DNA of 8,019 nt from Octopus sinensis. Taxonomy: Eukaryota. Within the stretch, counting starts at the first letter, position 1. Each line of letters begins with the position of its first letter. Made by a program: the position numbers and the translations under genes. Shown here piece after piece: positions 1 through 8,019 of this stretch. Location: NCBI RefSeq assembly GCF_006345805.1, contig NW_021828695.1, positions 1-8,019 on the forward strand, read 5' to 3'. Under the pieces are notes generated by a model. It had not been told where the DNA came from and did not search any database. It was given only the letters and a program-made list of their open reading frames with translations.

Positions 1-154
1 GTTCAAATTCCGCCGAGGTCGACTTTGCCATTCATCCTTTCGGGGCGATAAATTAAGTACCAGTTACGCACTGGGGTCGATGTAATCGACTTAATCCGTT
101 TGTCTGTCCTTGTTTGTCTCCTCTGTGTGTAGCCCCTTGTGGGTAATAAAGAAA
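1..154 (+). mobile_element. tRNA-derived SINE, cut by the window edge (B-box, central domain, 3' end)
   Basis: Starts with Pol III B-box-like GTTCAAATTCC (1-11), then GGTCGACTTTGCCATTCATCCTTTCGGGGCGATAAATTAAGTACCAG, and ends in A-rich TAATAAAGAAA. Resembles, from memory, a high-copy octopus SINE; family name not verified. Confidence 0.75.
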
Positions 155-235
155 CGGAATTTCGACAATTTGAAATGGACTGAACGAATATGAATACTGC
201 CCTTTGATATTTGTTTCTCTCTTTCCTAACTTTAT

Positions 236-260
236 ACACACACACACACACACACACACA
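236..260. repeat. (CA)n microsatellite
   Basis: Pure AC run read directly. Confidence 0.95.
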
Positions 261-403
261 ATGAATGGCGAGAGAGTTTGTATACATATATTGCGTTTGG
301 TGGGAGATATTAAATTTGTTCGTGCAAAGGCACACATGGAGGATGCACTCACGCGGATATATTTATGATCGATTTTCTTATTTATACGTGTTTATGTACG
401 CGC

Positions 404-746
404 GTGTGGTGTGTGTGTGTGTGTGCGTGTGTCTATACTACATACACACAAACATACATACAGACAGACAGACAGATAAATATATATGGACCATATACAT
501 AATACAAATATGCATAAATATATAAACATATATACATACATATATATATATATTTATGTATGTGTGTATAAACCGTATGTATACATATATTATGTATATT
601 ATATATACAATATATATCATATTTTATATATCATATTTAATATTATTATATATTTTTATATTATCATTATATATTATACATATTGTATTATAATATATAT
701 TATATAAGCTACATATATATATTATATATGCTATATATATATATTA
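404..746. repeat. Compound microsatellite / low complexity: (GT)n, (CAGA)n, degenerate (TA)n/(TAT)n
   Basis: Read directly; overlapping ORFs are Y/I/C/V-rich artefacts. Confidence 0.9.
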
Positions 747-811
747 TACTTTACTTTTTTTACTTTTTACTTGTTTCAGTCATGTGACTGTGGCCATGCT
801 GGAGCACCGCC
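747..811 (-). mobile_element. Isolated retroelement 3' tail (same family as the LINE tail) with (AAAGT)n-like end
   Basis: Reverse complement GGCGGTGCTCCAGCATGGCCACAGTCACATGACTGAAAC followed by A-rich AAGT repeats; aligns with 2577-2613 (-) and 7012-7050 (+). Confidence 0.8.
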
Positions 812-856
812 TTTAATTATATTATATTATATTATATTATATAATGTATATATAAA

Positions 857-965
857 GGGTTGGCTGTGTGGTAAGAAGGTTCCTTGCCAACCAATGTCTT
901 CTATTATAACCTCGGGATAGGATTTGAGGTTTCGGTAGACAAAAACTGAAAGAAGCCCACCATGT
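857..965 (+). mobile_element. tRNA-type SINE 5' part lacking a B-box, copy 1 of a tandem pair
   Basis: A-box-like TGGCTGTGTGG at 861-871; head matches 7926-7962; no GTTC B-box; ends in (TA)n. Confidence 0.7.
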
Positions 966-1042
966 ATATATAGATATATATATATATACATGGTGGGTTT
1001 TAATTTATTATATTATATTATATTATATAATGTATATAAAAA

Positions 1043-1151
1043 GGGTGGCTGTGTGGTAAGAAGGTTCCTTGCCAACCACATGTCTTCTATTATAACCTCG
1101 GGATAGGATTTGAGGTTTCGGTAGACAGAAACTGAGCGAAGCCCACCATGT
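1043..1151 (+). mobile_element. tRNA-type SINE 5' part lacking a B-box, copy 2 of a tandem pair
   Basis: Near-identical to 857-965 (period ~185 bp), including the upstream (TATAT)n flank; A-box-like motif at 1046-1056. Confidence 0.7.
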
Positions 1152-1379
1152 ATATATATATATATATATATATATACTATATATATATATATAGTATATA
1201 TATATAATTATTATATATAGAGGGCATTATTACACATAAATGCCACACGCTATATATATATAATATATATATGAAGTGATGAGAGAGAGATAGAATCTTA
1301 CGGACATAATGTTTGTATACCTCTGGCGTTGTGTGTCTATGTATGTGTGTGAGTGTGTGTGTATATACATACATACATA

Positions 1380-1420
<41 letters not shown>
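1151..1420. repeat. (TA)n and (GT)n microsatellite cluster
   Basis: Read directly; the HT-repeat ORFs here are artefacts. Confidence 0.9.
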
Positions 1421-1774
1421 TTAAATGCATTCAACAGTAAAATTATAACTATATAATATGTTCACCTTCTTGCTTGTGGATATGGGACTGGTGGCTTTGT
1501 TCTCATGTGCAACAGTAAGTTAAAGCATTCAACTGTACCTGAATCACGTCCTGGCTGCTAGTCACATAGTATCTGCCGGGAAAGTTTCTAAATCTTAAAC
1601 TTATAACACAAACAAATAACGATGATTGCTTTTCATTGAGCGAATATGTCACTTGTTAACAGCGTGCGGTGTAATATTATAGATATAGTGAATATTTTAT
1701 GCGTGTGTGCAGATTGTAACCGTACATTGACGTTGTGTTTGTGTGGGTGTGCGGTTGTGTGTGTGCGTGTGTAG

Positions 1775-1836
1775 TTTTTTTTTTTTTTCTTTTACATATT
1801 TTAGTCCAGAGGTTGCAGCCGTGCTAGATCCCCGCC
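1775..1836 (-). mobile_element. Old, diverged copy of the same retroelement 3' tail with A-rich end
   Basis: 1798-1836 aligns ungapped to 773-811 at 26/39 positions (hand count) and is preceded by a T-run (A-tail on the minus strand). Confidence 0.5.
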
Positions 1837-1920
1837 ATAGTATACAACTTATCAATACTCATTCTTATGCGATTGGCTTATATATTTTTAATATATATAA
1901 AGGGTTACGAGTTTGCTGGT

Positions 1921-2034
1921 ATATATATATATATATCTATATTATATATATATATATTATATATATTATATATATATATATAAATATATATATAGTGTGT
2001 GTGTTGTGTGTATAAAGGATTATGAGTTTCCTGG

Positions 2035-2119
<85 letters not shown>

Positions 2120-2175
2120 GATATGTTATATATATATATATATGTATGAATATATATATGTATATGTATATATTG

Positions 2176-2214
<39 letters not shown>

Positions 2215-2252
2215 TATATAATATGTATATATTATATATATATATATATTAT

Positions 2253-2284
<32 letters not shown>
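1921..2284. repeat. Long interrupted (TA)n/(TG)n microsatellite
   Basis: Read directly. Confidence 0.95.
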
Positions 2285-2359
2285 CCAGGAAACTCGTAAC
2301 CCTTGGGTCACCGGGAAGCTCTGAGTTTCCCAGCGACACAGTTTTGTTTCGTGGGTTGA

Positions 2360-2437
2360 AAAGATTTGGCAGCTATTTTTTGCACGACCTGCTACCACGT
2401 GGTAGCAGGGTGTGCTAGAAATAGCAGCCAAATCTTT
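2360..2437. repeat. 78-bp imperfect palindrome with perfect 22-bp core
   Basis: Core CCTGCTACCACGTGGTAGCAGG (2388-2409); 39-bp arms with 5 mismatches (AAAGATTTGGCAGCTATTT...AAATAGCAGCCAAATCTTT). Confidence 0.9.
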
Positions 2438-2632
2438 GGAGGGGAGATACGTTGAATGCACTCGAAAAAACTATTTCAGACTGACTTTATCTACCGTATT
2501 TTTAAATCATTTTCACTAGAATATTTTTTAAATATGACACAAAAAAAAATTGTGTTGGAATTCACATTTTTGTTTTAGTTTCAGCTCAGAGCTGTGGCCA
2601 TACTGAGGCACCGTTATTTTACTACACTGTTA

Positions 2633-4055
2633 TTATTGAGAGCCTCCTCTAATATGTGGCACTTGGTGAAGAAAAGAGTTTAATGTCGCTTCCCTCGTTT
2701 GCACCTCTTGCCGCGAAGTAGGTTCATCTGTGACTCCCGACCAGAAGAAGTCCAGTTTTGATTTGAAAACACCTACATCTACTTTGTGTAGGTCCTTCAG
2801 ACTCTTTGGGAGAATATTAAAAAGTTGTGGGCCCCTAAAATCCAGGCTGTTGTAGTAACTGGTCCTGGAGCGCGCACTGTGCAGTGACGATCCGTCCTGG
2901 TATTTGTGTAGCTTTCAATGCCAAAATTTGGCACAATTCCTTCTAGGATCTGCCAGATGTATATTACTGCATACTTCTCCCGCCTTTGCTCCAGGGAGTA
3001 GAGTCTTAACTCTTTCAGCCTTTTCCAGTTGCTGAGACGTTGCAATGAGACGATCTTCTTTGTCAAGCTTCGCTGGATTGCTTCAAGGTCCACTGTTAAT
3101 TTTATACTGTTGGGTGACCATAGCTGGGAGCAGTAAACGAATGTCCTCCAGAGGACCATCATGGGTTCCTTCTCTCTGGTACTGAACGTTCTCAGTATCA
3201 AGCCAGCCAGTCGTCTGCACTTTGTTGCCATCCTGGTAGTGTGCACTTGGAAAGAGGTATCATCACTCATGTCAATACCCAGGTCCTGTACTGATTTAGG
3301 GTCTGGGATTGTAATCCCCTGTGAGCCAGTGTACCCTGTAAGTTTTACGTTCAGTTTTGGACGCTGGTAGCGCAGAGCTTGGAATTTTTCAGCATTAAAC
3401 TGCATATTATTGTCCTCAGCCCATCTGTAAAGTGAGCCCAACTCCTGCTGCAGATGTACAACATCGCTGGGGTTCTGTATTTTCTGCGAGGCTTTATTAT
3501 CGTCTGCGTAACCAGTAAGGGTGGCTATCCGGGCAGCTGAGAGCATATCTGAGAGGGTCACCTGTGCTTGTTTGCAGTGAGCTATTCCTGAGAGCATGGG
3601 GCCTTCTGGCCATTTGATATTGAGGAAGTTGAAATCACCCATAAGAAATACGCTCACGTTGTGTTCCAGTTACATGAGGATTTCTTTAATTCTTGTGAGG
3701 CAATCTTCAAACTTGCCTATGTGGTTTGGAGCATCTGGTGAGCGATATGTATTGCATATTACTATATTGTATTGTCTTATGTATACAATTAGAATGTCAA
3801 ATACTGAATTTGAGTATGACAATAAGACCTAGGGTGTGAGGTCTTCACGGATGTATACAGCAATCACGGCTCCTTTCCCTTCCGTCTGTTCGCAGTATGG
3901 TATATTTTGGTATGTGTACTTCTGCATCCTCTATATCAGGGCTTAGATGAGTTTCTACGAGTGTTATGCATAGGGCTTGATTGTATGCAGCAAGATCTCT
4001 CAGGAAAAAAACTTGCTTTCGTTGTTGTGATGAAACAGGGCCCCCAATATTTAGT
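2633..4055 (-). pseudogene. LINE ORF2 remnant (endonuclease-reverse transcriptase) with stops, frameshifts and internal deletion
   Basis: Hand translation: FLRDLAAYNQALCITLVETHLSPDIEDAEVHIPKYTILRTD / VYIREDLTP*...YRSPD...M*LEHNVSVFLMGDFN. Continues as the 286-aa ORF 3657-2797, then after a frameshift NSLDFRGPQLFNILPKSLKDL...FKSKLD...VTDEP...GGSQ* (stop 2635-2633). Confidence 0.88.
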
Positions 4056-4099
4056 AAAAAATATTGGCGTGACTACTGCAGGCGTTAGGGGAGGCCATC

Positions 4100-4970
4100 C
4101 CGTGTCTGTTGATTGTAGTGATCTTGCGCAGTGGTGAGTAAGGTTCCTTGACTGTGCTTCATGTAGCCAGGTCAGCTGCTGCATAATCTTTTGCGCCATG
4201 CACAAAAAAGACTCTTGCACATAACATCTGAAGAGCGCACTGCATTTGTATATTTTTTTCTTTGGAGACGATTGGTGCCTTTCCTCGGGGAAGTATTTCT
4301 TCTTAAGGCCCCTGTAATTTTGGCGGGGTCTCATGTAAAATTTGCAGGTCCTTGACTTCACTCCAGCTTTCTTCTCTCCTCTAGGGTTTCGGATTCCATT
4401 GGAGCTTTCTGTTTTCTTTTTTTTTTTCGTGGTTTGGGGTTTCGATTTTAGTTATTTCATCTTTTCCTTTTCCTTTTTCTCCTCTTCCTTCCTTACATTT
4501 GTACTCGTGTTCTTTCCTTCCTTTTCTGATGGCAGCATTTTCATTCCTCTGGTTTTCCAATGGGGTGAGGACTATATTCCTTTGTAGGACCATTGGCACA
4601 GAGGGACTTCTGGTTGTTGCATCCTCAGCTTCCCTATCCCTATCAGCCTGGCTGTTCACAGGGGTGGGGGGATCCATTCTTTTGAGAGACCACTGAATCA
4701 AAGAGACTTCTGATTTTTGCTTCGTTTTCCCAATCCTTATCAGCCTCACCACAGTAGTTTTTCATGATGACATCAAGAGTGTCAATGTGTGATCTAATAA
4801 GGGCATAGGATCGTATGAATTCATTTTTCTTCCGCTCTCTCTGCTCAATGATTCTACAGAAGCCATTGTACAGAAGCAGTGATGATGTTGTTTGATGGAT
4901 CGCCGCTAATAATCGTCCATGCTCGCAACAGAAGATTCAATTCCTTGCTCTCCCACTTTGGTACCATCTA
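4100..4970 (-). pseudogene. Probable LINE ORF1 remnant (fragmented, Lys/Glu-rich)
   Basis: Protein-like broken frames directly upstream of the APE domain on the same strand (ORFs 4752-4381 and 4361-3936; GFCRIIEQRERKKNEFIRSYALIRSHIDTLDVIMKNYC). Assigned by position; no diagnostic domain recognised. Confidence 0.5.
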
Positions 4971-4984
4971 TGTTTTCTAAACCC

Positions 4985-5515
4985 AGAGGGGGGAAGAATA
5001 GAGAGGAAGTGAGAGACAGAGGGAGGTAGAAAGGAAGAAAGACAGAGGTAGGGAGAGGGAAAGAGAGAGAGAGTATGGAGCGATAGCGAGACAGAGGGAG
5101 GGAGAAGAGTGGAAGAGAAAGAGAGACAGAGTAAGGGAAAGAGAGGAGAGAATGAAGGATGTGAGGGAAAGGGAGAGACCGAGTGAGAAGAGGAGGGAAA
5201 AGGAGAAATATATGAGGGAGATGGTGAGATGAGAGGGGGAGAGATAGATGTAGAGAGAGACAAAGGAAGGGAGAGTGAAGTGGGAAAAGGAGGAAGATAT
5301 GAAAGGGAGGGAGAGACAGAGTAAGAGAGAGGAAAGAAAAGAGGAAGGTATGAAAGAGAGAAGGAGAGAGCTAGATGTAGAGAGAGACAAAGAGAAGAGA
5401 GAGAGAGAGAAGCGGGAAAAGGGGGAAGATATGAAAGGGAAGGCGAGAAGAAGAGGAAGATATGAAAGAGAGAGGGGAGGAGCAGGTAACGAAGATATGA
5501 AGGAAAAATAAAAAC
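4985..5515. repeat. ~530-bp polypurine (GA-rich) low-complexity tract with internal repeats
   Basis: Mostly A/G on the + strand; TAGATGTAGAGAGAGACAAAG at 5245-5265 and 5372-5392; GAAGATATGAA at 5293, 5425, 5456 and 5491. Confidence 0.9.
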
Positions 5516-5624
5516 GAATGGTATAGAGCGAGGGGGCTCCTGTAAAACAAAGATAAAATGAAAAAACCATAATAAAAAGAAAGAGGTTTTGTAACGAATT
5601 CGCTACCGTGAATTTTTTAAATAG

Positions 5625-5689
5625 AATAATAATAATAATGAAATTATTGTATACAGTGCTCTGGTGCACCACAACCTGTCAGAAAGTGC
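5625..5689 (-). mobile_element. Possible short retroelement 3' end with (ATT)n tail
   Basis: Minus strand ...GTGGTGCACCAGAGCACTGTATACAATAATTTC(ATT)5; small GTGC/GCAC stem before a trinucleotide tail. Confidence 0.35.
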
Positions 5690-5711
5690 CTCCATTTTCT
5701 TATTTGTATTA

Positions 5712-5786
5712 TGTGTCGGTGGCACATAAAAAGCACCCACTACACTCACGGAGTGGTTGGCGCTAGGAAGGGCATCCAGATGTAGA
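5712..5786 (+). mobile_element. Internal fragment of a SINE/LINE-derived repeat
   Basis: GGTGGCACATAAAAAGCACCCACTACACTCACGGAGTGGTTGGCGCTAGGAAGGGCATCCAG resembles, from memory, a common octopus repeat segment; a GC-richer island in AT-rich DNA. No second copy in the window. Confidence 0.55.
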
Positions 5787-6877
5787 TACAAACAATACAT
5801 CTTAACTTAAATTTTCATCCGATATTATCAATGATAAAACAAAATAAACAAAATAAATAGGATACTTATTCTCAAGCGGTAAAATTCCAATCCTTGTTCT
5901 TGTACGAAGAAGTTTTATTTCAAAGAAAAAATCGATTACTCTTGGCACACGGCTGCTAATGAAAGTACGATTTATCACCACGTACTTTCTTCGAAGATAA
6001 CTCTGGCTTGCGTCATTTTTTTTTTTTACCAAAATATTATAGTAAATCATTATGAAATAACAAGTACTGGGTTGTTTTTTTTTTATTGAGTTTCAGTAGA
6101 TTTTTTGTCGATTTAGGGAATCCCTTTTGGTTTTTTCCGAAGCACGAAAAGCACGTCTTTCCATAACGAAACCGGAAGTATATACTTGAAAATAATTTTA
6201 AAAAACATTAAAATATTGTCTGTTTAAAGAAAGCTAAACTATAAATACTTACTGTACAAACAGCTTACAGTTTTGAAATCACATTCACTTAAAAATATTT
6301 CTAAATGATTAAAATATTGTATTTAATAAAAGCGAAAATAGAAACTGTAAAAAAAAATCGCTTTTTTTTTCCTTCTTTTCGTTGTCAAATCACTGTCTAA
6401 TAAAAAGTTATGAGTTTCTTTCCTTTCAGGATGAAGATTATTTTCGGAACATTTTCCCATTATGCACCGTTTTGGATATTTATATCCTGAAAATCTCTAA
6501 TATCTTGAAAATAACTTTACCGATTTACGCGAAACTTGTTTCATTCGAGAAGTTTTAACATTTCAGGGTAAACTTAATTCATGGTATTTTCCCATTATGT
6601 GCCAGTTTCGCTGAGTAACATTACAAGCAAGCAAGAAAGATTGAAACTGACTTTTAATGTATTATGAATATGTATATATAATTTATATTTTTATGGAACA
6701 TAACTGTTATGTTCGGTCTATTATTTTTTAACTTCTTGTCCGTTTGAATAGAAAAGTTACACCAAATCTTACATTTCTCCGACTACAGTACGCTTTCGAC
6801 TCGATGATTGTATCACGTGTTTCCAGCTTCAAATCCCCATTTCTGACACAGTTTCCAGTGTAAAACTTTTACAACCA

Positions 6878-6996
6878 TATTACGGCCATATCACGTTGAA
6901 AGCACCCGTTCTCGTCTGATCACCGAAGTTAAGCAACGTCGAGCCTAGTCGGTACTTAGATGGGTGACCGCTTGGGAAACCTAGGTGCAGTAAGCA
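6878..6996 (+). rRNA. 5S rRNA: 5S rRNA-derived sequence (retroposed copy, probably not a functional rRNA gene)
   Basis: TTACGGCCATATCACGTTGAAAGCACCCGTTCTCGTCTGATCACCGAAGTTAAGCAACGTCGAGCC...GATGGGTGACCGCTTGGGAAACCTAGGTGCAGTAAGCA is typical metazoan 5S. The first two bases (GC, expected from helix I pairing with the 3' GTAAGC) are replaced, helix I has a mismatch, and there is no oligo-T terminator. Confidence 0.93.
6927..6975 (+). promoter_or_regulatory. Pol III type 1 internal control region (box A to box C)
   Basis: Box A AGTTAAGCAACGTCG at 6927-6941 (5S +50 to +64); box C AGATGGGTGACCGCTTGG at 6958-6975, with A where G is usual at +81. Confidence 0.75.
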
Positions 6997-7825
6997 TAGC
7001 ACATTGTTAATGGCGGTGCCCCAGCATGGCCACAGCTCATGAGCTGAAACTAGAATCAATCAATCGATCAATCAAAACCTGGTCGTGCTTTCATTTCTTA
7101 TACCTTTCCCGTGCCAACTTGAAGCATTATGTCACAATGTGTGCCACTGTCTTGTTCCAAGTTCCACAGGCTCTACATTTTTCTGACACCTTCTTTCCAT
7201 ATATATTTTCCCTCAAGCTGTTTGTTTGTTTTGTTTTTTGTTGCTTGATCTTGGGCTGCTACAATTAGGCACACTGTTTCTTTTTTTAACTCTATAACAA
7301 CAGTTTTTTTTTAATCAACACAATTAGGTTGCGTTGATGTTAATTATCTCGCTTGAGATAAGCAATTAACGCACGACAATGGTTGGGTGTATATTTACAA
7401 CAACCGTTTTAACCAGTTTACGGCGATGATTCATTCGGTTGCCTGGCGCCATGGGCTCTTAGGAGCATAGTTCGATTTGTTTTTGCTCCGCCTCTGTTCT
7501 GTTTTTGTTTTTTCCAAGGATTTCCTTTTTTTTCCTGAAGAGAAAGACACAATATGGTCTCATTATTCAATCGGATTTTGGTAATTTGTGCCTTTCGAAA
7601 CACGTGTAGAATGAAATAAAACGATTTCTGTTCAATCTGCGTTCAGCTCCATTTCTTCAATTCACCAATAATGTTTTAATTTCAATTATCCGCACCAACG
7701 CACGGTTGCAACGCCAGATGGTTGTACCTCCAACCGTGCTGTTACTGCTGTGATTTTTGCTACTAAGGTATCGGTTAAACTTTTGATTAATCTACTACAA
7801 GATTATTCATCTTTCTATTTCACAT

Positions 7826-7842
7826 AATATATATATATATAG

Positions 7843-7895
<53 letters not shown>

Positions 7896-7962
7896 GTATA
7901 TATATATGTATGTATAGGCGTTGGAGTGGCTGTGTGGTAAGTGGCTTGCATACCAGCCACAT

Positions 7963-7996
<34 letters not shown>
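7826..7996. repeat. (TA)n microsatellite interrupted by a SINE head
   Basis: Read directly. Confidence 0.95.
7917..7965 (+). mobile_element. tRNA-type SINE head (A-box only), truncated by (TA)n
   Basis: GGCGTTGGAGTGGCTGTGTGGTAAGTGGCTTGCATACCAGCCACATGGT; homologous to 857-895 and 1043-1082. Confidence 0.7.
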
Positions 7997-8001
<5 letters not shown>

Positions 8002-8019
8002 GAGTTTAGTAACAAGTTG

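Follow-up and report, generated by a model that had tools for sequence, protein, structure and literature searches.

A short 3' tail shared by a LINE relic and a 5S rRNA-headed element in Octopus sinensis

An 8,019-nucleotide (nt) stretch of the Octopus sinensis genome (contig NW_021828695.1, positions 1 to 8,019; hereafter the window) contains a recurrent module of about 40 nt, which most probably serves as the recognition tail at the 3' end of a stringent lineage of non-LTR retrotransposons, of the CR1 group. The module is shared by three clear copies (A, B and C) and one decayed copy (D). In copy B it terminates a long interspersed nuclear element (LINE), and in element C it is fused to a full-length 5S rRNA-derived head with no run of four T residues in between; it includes a stable terminal hairpin of 5 bp (H2) with a short simple repeat after it. 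Element C has the anatomy of a short interspersed nuclear element (SINE) of the SINE3 class without a body, and probably belongs to a propagating family rather than being a one-off chimera. The features concerned, including an upstream hairpin (H1) and the open reading frames (ORFs) of the LINE, are the following:

747-816, minus strand: tail copy A, an orphan 3' stub comprising H1 (792-811), which folds best in this copy, H2 (777-790) and a repeat of AAAAGT type
1776-1838, minus strand: tail copy D, a decayed orphan stub nearest to A, with both hairpins broken and an A-run at its end
2570-2615, minus strand: tail copy B, forming the LINE's 3' end, located by blastn, core scan and folding, with a degenerate A-rich end
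2633-4203, minus strand: dead ORF2 of the LINE, located by tblastn with proteins P0001-P0003 and by Pfam
4204-4940, minus strand: broken ORF1-like region with basic and Cys-containing stretches; the upstream limit is approximate
6878-6996, plus strand: head of element C, derived from 5S rRNA over its full length (Rfam RF00001, 94.6 bits, model positions 1-120/120)
6997-7011, plus strand: 15-nt spacer of element C, with no SINE body, from the sequence
7012-7050, plus strand: tail copy C, consisting of H1 (7012-7031), a single A (7032), H2 (7033-7046) and AAAC
7054-7075, plus strand: (AATC)n terminal repeat of element C

The three clear copies contain an exact 22-nt core, located at 788-809 (minus strand) in A, at 2592-2613 (minus strand) in B and at 7014-7035 (plus strand) in C, and an exact match to this core was found in 0/200 shuffles, compared to the three matches in the window. 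By blastn, copy C is identical to B at 38/42 positions and to A at 42/48, and all three pairwise similarities were better than those of 1000/1000 shuffles. The sites that the original prediction had assigned to these copies are thus confirmed, and the degenerate copy that it had placed at 1798-1836 (minus strand) proved to be a weak but real homologue, matching A at 33/47 positions without gaps (0/1000 shuffles as good). The similarity of D to C and to B was reached by 1/1000 and 38/1000 shuffles, respectively, its nhmmer E-value was 0.0046, and a covariance model of A, B and C scored it at 8 bits (E 0.71). As copy D is decayed and folds into neither H1 nor H2, it is uninformative on pairing. 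The 3' ends are unlike one another, as had also been proposed, with (AATC)n in C, a degenerate AAAAC end in B and the AAAAGT-type repeat at 747-772 in A. Homology did not extend 5' of H1, where 1494/2000 shuffles were as good for B-D, 672/2000 for C-D and 576/2000 for B-C, the last comparison showing no significant similarity between the spacers of the LINE and of element C.

Copy B begins (from 2615) 17 nt past the stop codon of ORF2 (2633-2635, minus strand) and is therefore the LINE's own 3' terminus, in agreement with the proposal that the tail is a LINE end. ORF2 is a relic with several stops and frameshifts, in which an APE endonuclease domain (~4203-3560) is fused directly to the last reverse transcriptase (RT) motif and the C-terminus (~3580-2636). 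Its closest full-length relative, P0001 (1033 aa), shows 63% identity (E 1e-100). In tblastn, residues 1-215 of P0001 map to 4203-3559 and residues 706-1030 to 3603-2648, so that about 500 codons, approximately amino acids 216-713 of P0001, are missing from the window, including the linker between endonuclease and RT and most of the RT. The window copy is a dead, deleted relic and, because of this loss, cannot be the source of the enzyme. The deletion at ~3560-3600 (minus strand) joins the APE domain to the last RT motif in frame and retains both LINE ends; such an internally deleted LINE could be a non-autonomous subfamily and not a one-off deletion.

The window fragments map to P0001-P0003, and the Pfam content of P0001 and P0002 is limited to PF00078, PF14529 and PF03372, that is, APE and RT without RNase H. 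On the basis of this domain content, and of C-terminal ORF2 motifs which we take to resemble those of CR1, the LINE is probably an APE- and RT-encoding non-LTR retrotransposon of the CR1 group. A search of the PDB retrieved only L1, R2 and other distant RTs. For the ORF1-like region one relative was found, P0064, matching across two window frames (E 1.4e-4), and no relevant Pfam family was detected in 4204-4940. Zenon elements have been described as carrying a poly-A tail and lacking ORF1 (bioRxiv 10.64898/2026.01.13.699120). The LINE does not fit this description, because its end is not poly-A; A, B and C end in short repeats and only D in an A-run. The broken ORF1-like region upstream would be a further departure if it is a true ORF1. 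Just upstream of the ORF1-like region there is a GA-rich degenerate tandem array (4986-5520, periods of 51 and 132 bp), which may be part of the LINE 5' end. A near-perfect palindrome of ~76 nt (2361-2436, about -50 kcal/mol as RNA) lies ~130 bp downstream of the LINE end.

Element C has several of the features that define SINE3 elements: a 5S-related head of at least 60 nt, no RNA polymerase III (pol III) terminator between head and tail, a 3' end shared with a LINE (the 38/42 match to B), a simple terminal repeat and a length below 1 kb (about 198 nt). Beyond the 5S start, TTTT does not occur before 7178, and pol III could thus transcribe through the tail. Four non-standard pairs were counted in the 5S head (two at the 5' end, another in helix I and one internal). 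Inspection by eye revealed stretches that we take to be A-box-like (from ~6927) and C-box-like (~6952-6969).

RNA folding predicted a terminal H2 of 5 bp with a loop of 3-4 nt in each of the clear copies:

7033-7046, plus strand: H2 of copy C, loop CAUG
2582-2594, minus strand: H2 of copy B, loop CUG
777-790, minus strand: H2 of copy A, loop ACAU (placed at 775-790 in the original prediction)

The 6-bp stems with loops of 1 or 2 nt proposed earlier cannot form. An upstream hairpin, H1, had been missed; it has the structure (((.((((....)))).))) and is separated from H2 by a single A. H1 is predicted in A and C and is weakened in B, where its two outer pairs are gone. Its loop is YYCA in 3/3 clear copies, and the upstream 20 nt that make up the H1 segment are nearly constant among them, unlike the H2 loop, which is different in each. 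In the context of the whole element, pairs 2-5 of H2 had predicted probabilities of 0.75-1.0 in A, B and C, the first pair being left out of the count.

The sharing of a tail between a LINE and a 5S-headed element is the usual hallmark of stringent LINE/SINE pairs (PMC4176376, PMC4824008). By analogy with ZfL2 and UnaL2, the ORF2 protein would bind the structured tail through a putative binding region between endonuclease and RT, nick the target DNA and prime reverse transcription in the terminal repeat, and any RNA with this tail at its end might be copied in trans. Transcription by pol III from the putative internal promoter of the 5S head through the tail would make element C a body-less passenger of SINE3 type. 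Copies A and D would stem from other elements, carrying a sister form of the tail, whose insertions were truncated at the 5' end or eroded; the copying would have been the work of intact relatives of the LINE at other places in the genome, the window copy being a relic.

As in UnaL2 and ZfL2, a stem-loop directly precedes short terminal repeats at the end of the LINE. No conserved specificity loop was found on the terminal hairpin, which carries three different loops in three copies. Because the ZfL2 loop is read specifically while the H2 loop varies here, H2 is less likely to be the sequence-specific determinant, and the near-invariant upstream segment would be, by the same analogy, a better candidate. 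Either sequence specificity may reside upstream of H2, or distinct LINE subfamilies may read distinct loops. We also consider, as a tentative proposal with the odds against it, a bipartite signal in which H1 would be read by sequence, the single A would serve as a hinge and H2 would be read by shape only, unlike the single-hairpin L2 model. Its layout would be kept between ORF2s that are ~40% identical, and in octopus it would represent the missing partner of the body-less 5S SINE and of abundant tRNA-headed SINEs.

The ~40% identity refers to a LINE-like locus, L001, from a protein scan of prokaryotic species-representative genomes (the genome_contigs collection), in which 244 LINE-like stretches were confirmed and 80 of them kept (L001-L080). 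The presence of these 244 APE-RT LINE relatives in prokaryotic genomes, isolate assemblies included (L027, L062, L068), is probably due to eukaryotic contamination. Among the 80 of 244 loci, L001 was the sole full match to a profile of the ORF2 C-terminus (E 3.6e-29; six others matched partially), and its ORF2 is 40% identical to P0001. Its 3' untranslated region terminates in a pair of neighbouring hairpins (z -1.8) with one A in between, followed by a short A-rich repeat; the sequence is different from that of the window tails. A descriptor of the two-hairpin layout matched A, C and L001, but also a further two sites, in L024 and L061, and numerous stretches of (TA)n, with a background of ~1.4e-5 per position, a rate that is optimistic since the descriptor was widened after inspection of L001 and misses copy B. 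A hidden Markov model of the tail gave a best E-value of 2.7 on the 80 of 244 loci, and with filters off on three sources the covariance model did not place the L001 tail among its 21 matches.

Several results weigh against the interpretation of the module as the tail of a LINE and its SINE. No convincing target site duplication was found around element C, the best flush candidate being one of 4 bp (6873/7076); a similar search for the LINE returned short or poly-A/T candidates only. A second 5S-tail junction was not found. With the antisense ORF of the 5S and tail as protein query, 10/10 matches (P0066-P0075) cover the 5S part alone and 0/10 carry the tail, and both an exact-pattern scan for the tail in genome_contigs and a blastn search of 5S and tail against plasmids gave 0 matches, in collections that are not the right ones for this tail. 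It is thus possible, with a probability clearly on the lower side, that element C is a one-off 5S-LINE chimera, generated by template switch or RNA ligation in a single insertion and left as a dead-end pseudogene, in which case the tail would still be the LINE's. Its single copy and the lack of any body beyond the 15-nt spacer agree with such an origin, 5S/LINE chimeras are known in mammals (bioRxiv 10.1101/2025.02.02.635956), and SINEBase requires at least 100 copies for a SINE and keeps SINEs apart from RNA pseudogenes (PMC3531059). However, the 5S part is full-length and in sense orientation, the LINE portion comprises the minimal tail, no more and no less, and has a terminal repeat of its own, (AATC)n, unlike the end of B, and four SINE families of a 5S class, amounting to 9.83 Mb, are annotated in O. 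vulgaris (PMC13282606). We note, as a separate matter, that P0066-P0075 are spurious proteins, namely antisense translations of 5S rRNA genes in the protein collection.

Further points on the same side concern the hairpins. Relative to shuffles, the folds of A and C were stable (z -3.0 and -2.4) and those of B and D were not (-0.45 and +0.79). H1 was absent from the predicted fold of the whole of element C, where its nucleotides are drawn into predicted pairs with the 5S part, and from that of the last 150 nt of B, persisting only in the isolated stub A. As longer-context folds keep H2 in all three copies and H1 only in A, the predicted H2 is robust, whereas H1 is a hypothetical hairpin that may form. 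In a three-row alignment of A, B and C, 34/36 cells are paired, including all 15 of H2, and two H2 pairs are changed on both sides. The earlier claim that sequence changes while pairing is kept holds for pairing in these copies, but the significant covariation that it called for was not reached: with three copies, 52/500 shuffles attained two double changes, and the two pairs are neighbours that set a single copy apart (A versus B=C). The data allow for covariation but do not demonstrate it. An unlikely explanation for the hairpin differences, in a tail shared by descent, is neutral drift or local palindrome-templated repair, with A and B/C representing LINE subfamilies and no selection acting on pairing. 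The two adjacent changes may then be a single event, a gapped alignment explains the difference between A and B/C equally well, H2 of copy C is a perfect 14-nt palindrome, and D retains sequence similarity without pairing. Nevertheless, the 5-bp stem is kept in all three young copies despite their different loops, L001 has a similar layout, and such stems are needed for function in ZfL2 (PMC4176376). The likeness of L001 is itself suggestive only: its end was marginally similar to B and C (43 and 65/1000 shuffles), with the similarity located in the terminal hairpin. On 81 sources the covariance model gave 15 matches, none of them the L001 tail, and the best of these outside the three training copies scored 13.2 bits (E 0.36). 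Finally, chance similarity or a low-complexity artefact can be practically dismissed, and for A, B and C it is refuted. Microsatellites are abundant in the window and D is marginal, but the core is GC-rich and located at element ends, and the shuffles for the three clear copies (0/200 and 0/1000) were never as good.

With the shared LINE/SINE tail as the preferred interpretation, the original proposal of an RT recognition signal common to a LINE and several dependent elements is retained for the LINE end common to the 5S-headed element, and not for the covariation or the plurality of dependents. One dependent element was found (C), and no head could be identified for A or D within the window, nor an ORF2 C-terminus upstream of D. 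The 5' side of copy A runs into an (ATTAT)n microsatellite. Since its H2 and terminal repeat differ from those of B and C, A probably derives from a sister subfamily, and A and B/C may serve sister LINE subfamilies and not one RT. Its tail variant, like the SINE pieces at 1-153 and 854-1150, presumably recurs in octopus genomes.

Other repeats were observed in the window. The SINE-like fragment at 1-153 (plus strand) has a B-box-like start and a 3' end different from the shared tail, and is presumably an abundant octopus SINE; its end (95-156) was tried as a further tail copy and rejected, 276-571/1000 shuffles being as good. A 186-bp tandem duplication (812-1174, 95% match) contains SINE-head-like pieces at 854-960 and 1039-1150 (plus strand), back-to-back with stub A, and a third, shorter piece of this kind lies at 7920-7965 (plus strand), near the window end. 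At 1900-2304, inverted arms flank a long stretch of (TA)n, and part of a third arm is present at ~2013-2040; the structure resembles a miniature inverted-repeat transposable element or a rearranged repeat. Repeat-like fragments were also seen at 5640-5790, which we take to be a piece of another octopus retroelement, and at 6000-6830, AT-rich and by eye DNA-transposon-like. No tRNA gene was found in the window.

If the proposed pairing is true, a partner LINE and a minimal cis signal of ~40 nt can be named for a 5S-derived SINE in an octopus genome. In O. vulgaris, SINEs make up 11.7% of the assembly, and 1279/1317 SINE families are unclassified (PMC13282606). Moreover, the copies would constitute a natural panel of tails with which to tell the sequence-read from the shape-read parts of a CR1-group tail. 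Sequence and shape reading have already been dissected for ZfL2, of the L2 clade (PMC4176376); the principle is not new and would come as no surprise to a specialist.

The closest functional parallels are the stringent L2-clade LINEs UnaL2 of eel and ZfL2-1 and ZfL2-2 of zebrafish, whose passengers share a short 3' stem-loop tail (PMC4176376), as UnaSINE does with UnaL2 and as we propose here. In ZfL2 the stem can be swapped if pairing is kept and the loop cannot, the loop being the specificity determinant, and the tail-binding region is the linker between endonuclease and RT (PMC4176376). In contrast to that fixed loop, CAUG, CUG and ACAU are found here, plus a possible upstream hairpin with a YYCA loop, and our evidence comes from sequence and folding. 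[quoted passage not shown] That system likewise has a CR1-group tail common to several SINEs, with stem-loops and compensatory changes reported, but the tail sequence is unrelated by eye, and its SINEs have tRNA-derived heads with conserved bodies. The literature searched gave no description of the octopus tail, although it may be present in the paper that first described octopus SINEs, in Repbase/Dfam, in the library deposited at Zenodo, in figures or in some supplements. One text search for the window motifs matched 32 papers, and by title none among the 31 listed deals with retroelements; another matched no paper. Reportedly, Ohshima and Okada in 1994 (octopus OR1/OR2/OK) and Kapitonov and Jurka in 2003 may already have described this or similar tails. 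In their accessible text, the octopus and mollusc transposable element papers PMC9115989, PMC8967140, PMC10294476 and PMC12988792 and the SINE3 papers PMC5786205 and PMC10886601 do not describe it, and the window motifs were absent from the supplement text of PMC11481361 (8 files), PMC4758252 (all but one file) and PMC10294476 (without files 13-33).

Tails common to SINEs and LINEs have been compiled for animals in general, and the compilation contains 5S-headed SINEs whose partners bear CR1 names (PMC3747384). Element C resembles SINE3 elements, such as zebrafish SINE3 and AmnSINE1 with CR1-4_DR-type tails, OS-SINE1, Ped-1, HaSE3 and CoeSINE5, in its 5S-derived head and LINE-derived 3' end (PMC3747384, PMC5786205, PMC10886601). 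According to these sources, those of fish and amniotes belong to the DeuSINEs and possess a central domain, and several of the others have RTE/BovB partners, whereas C consists of a full 5S, 15 nt and the tail. The O. vulgaris annotation lists, besides 169 CR1 families, the '5S' SINE class mentioned above, for which the accessible text gives counts and no anatomy, tail or partner, so that element C is likened to it by class name alone (PMC13282606). In Table 1 of that paper, the insertions of the one recently active '5S' family have a mean length of ~6 kb (42,242 bp in 7 insertions), which exceeds what is expected of a SINE; the family may represent a 5S-tailed element that was merged with a LINE or with a unit of rDNA. 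The U6/L1 and 5S/L1 chimeric retrocopies also join a small pol III RNA to a LINE 3' end; most 5S/L1 chimeras of mammals are truncated and in antisense orientation (bioRxiv 10.1101/2025.02.02.635956), whereas C is full-length, sense and carries a non-L1 tail. Tail sharing with compensated stems is therefore already known from eel, zebrafish and bivalves, and what the octopus sequence adds is a body-less, full-length 5S head on this tail and a possible two-hairpin signal.

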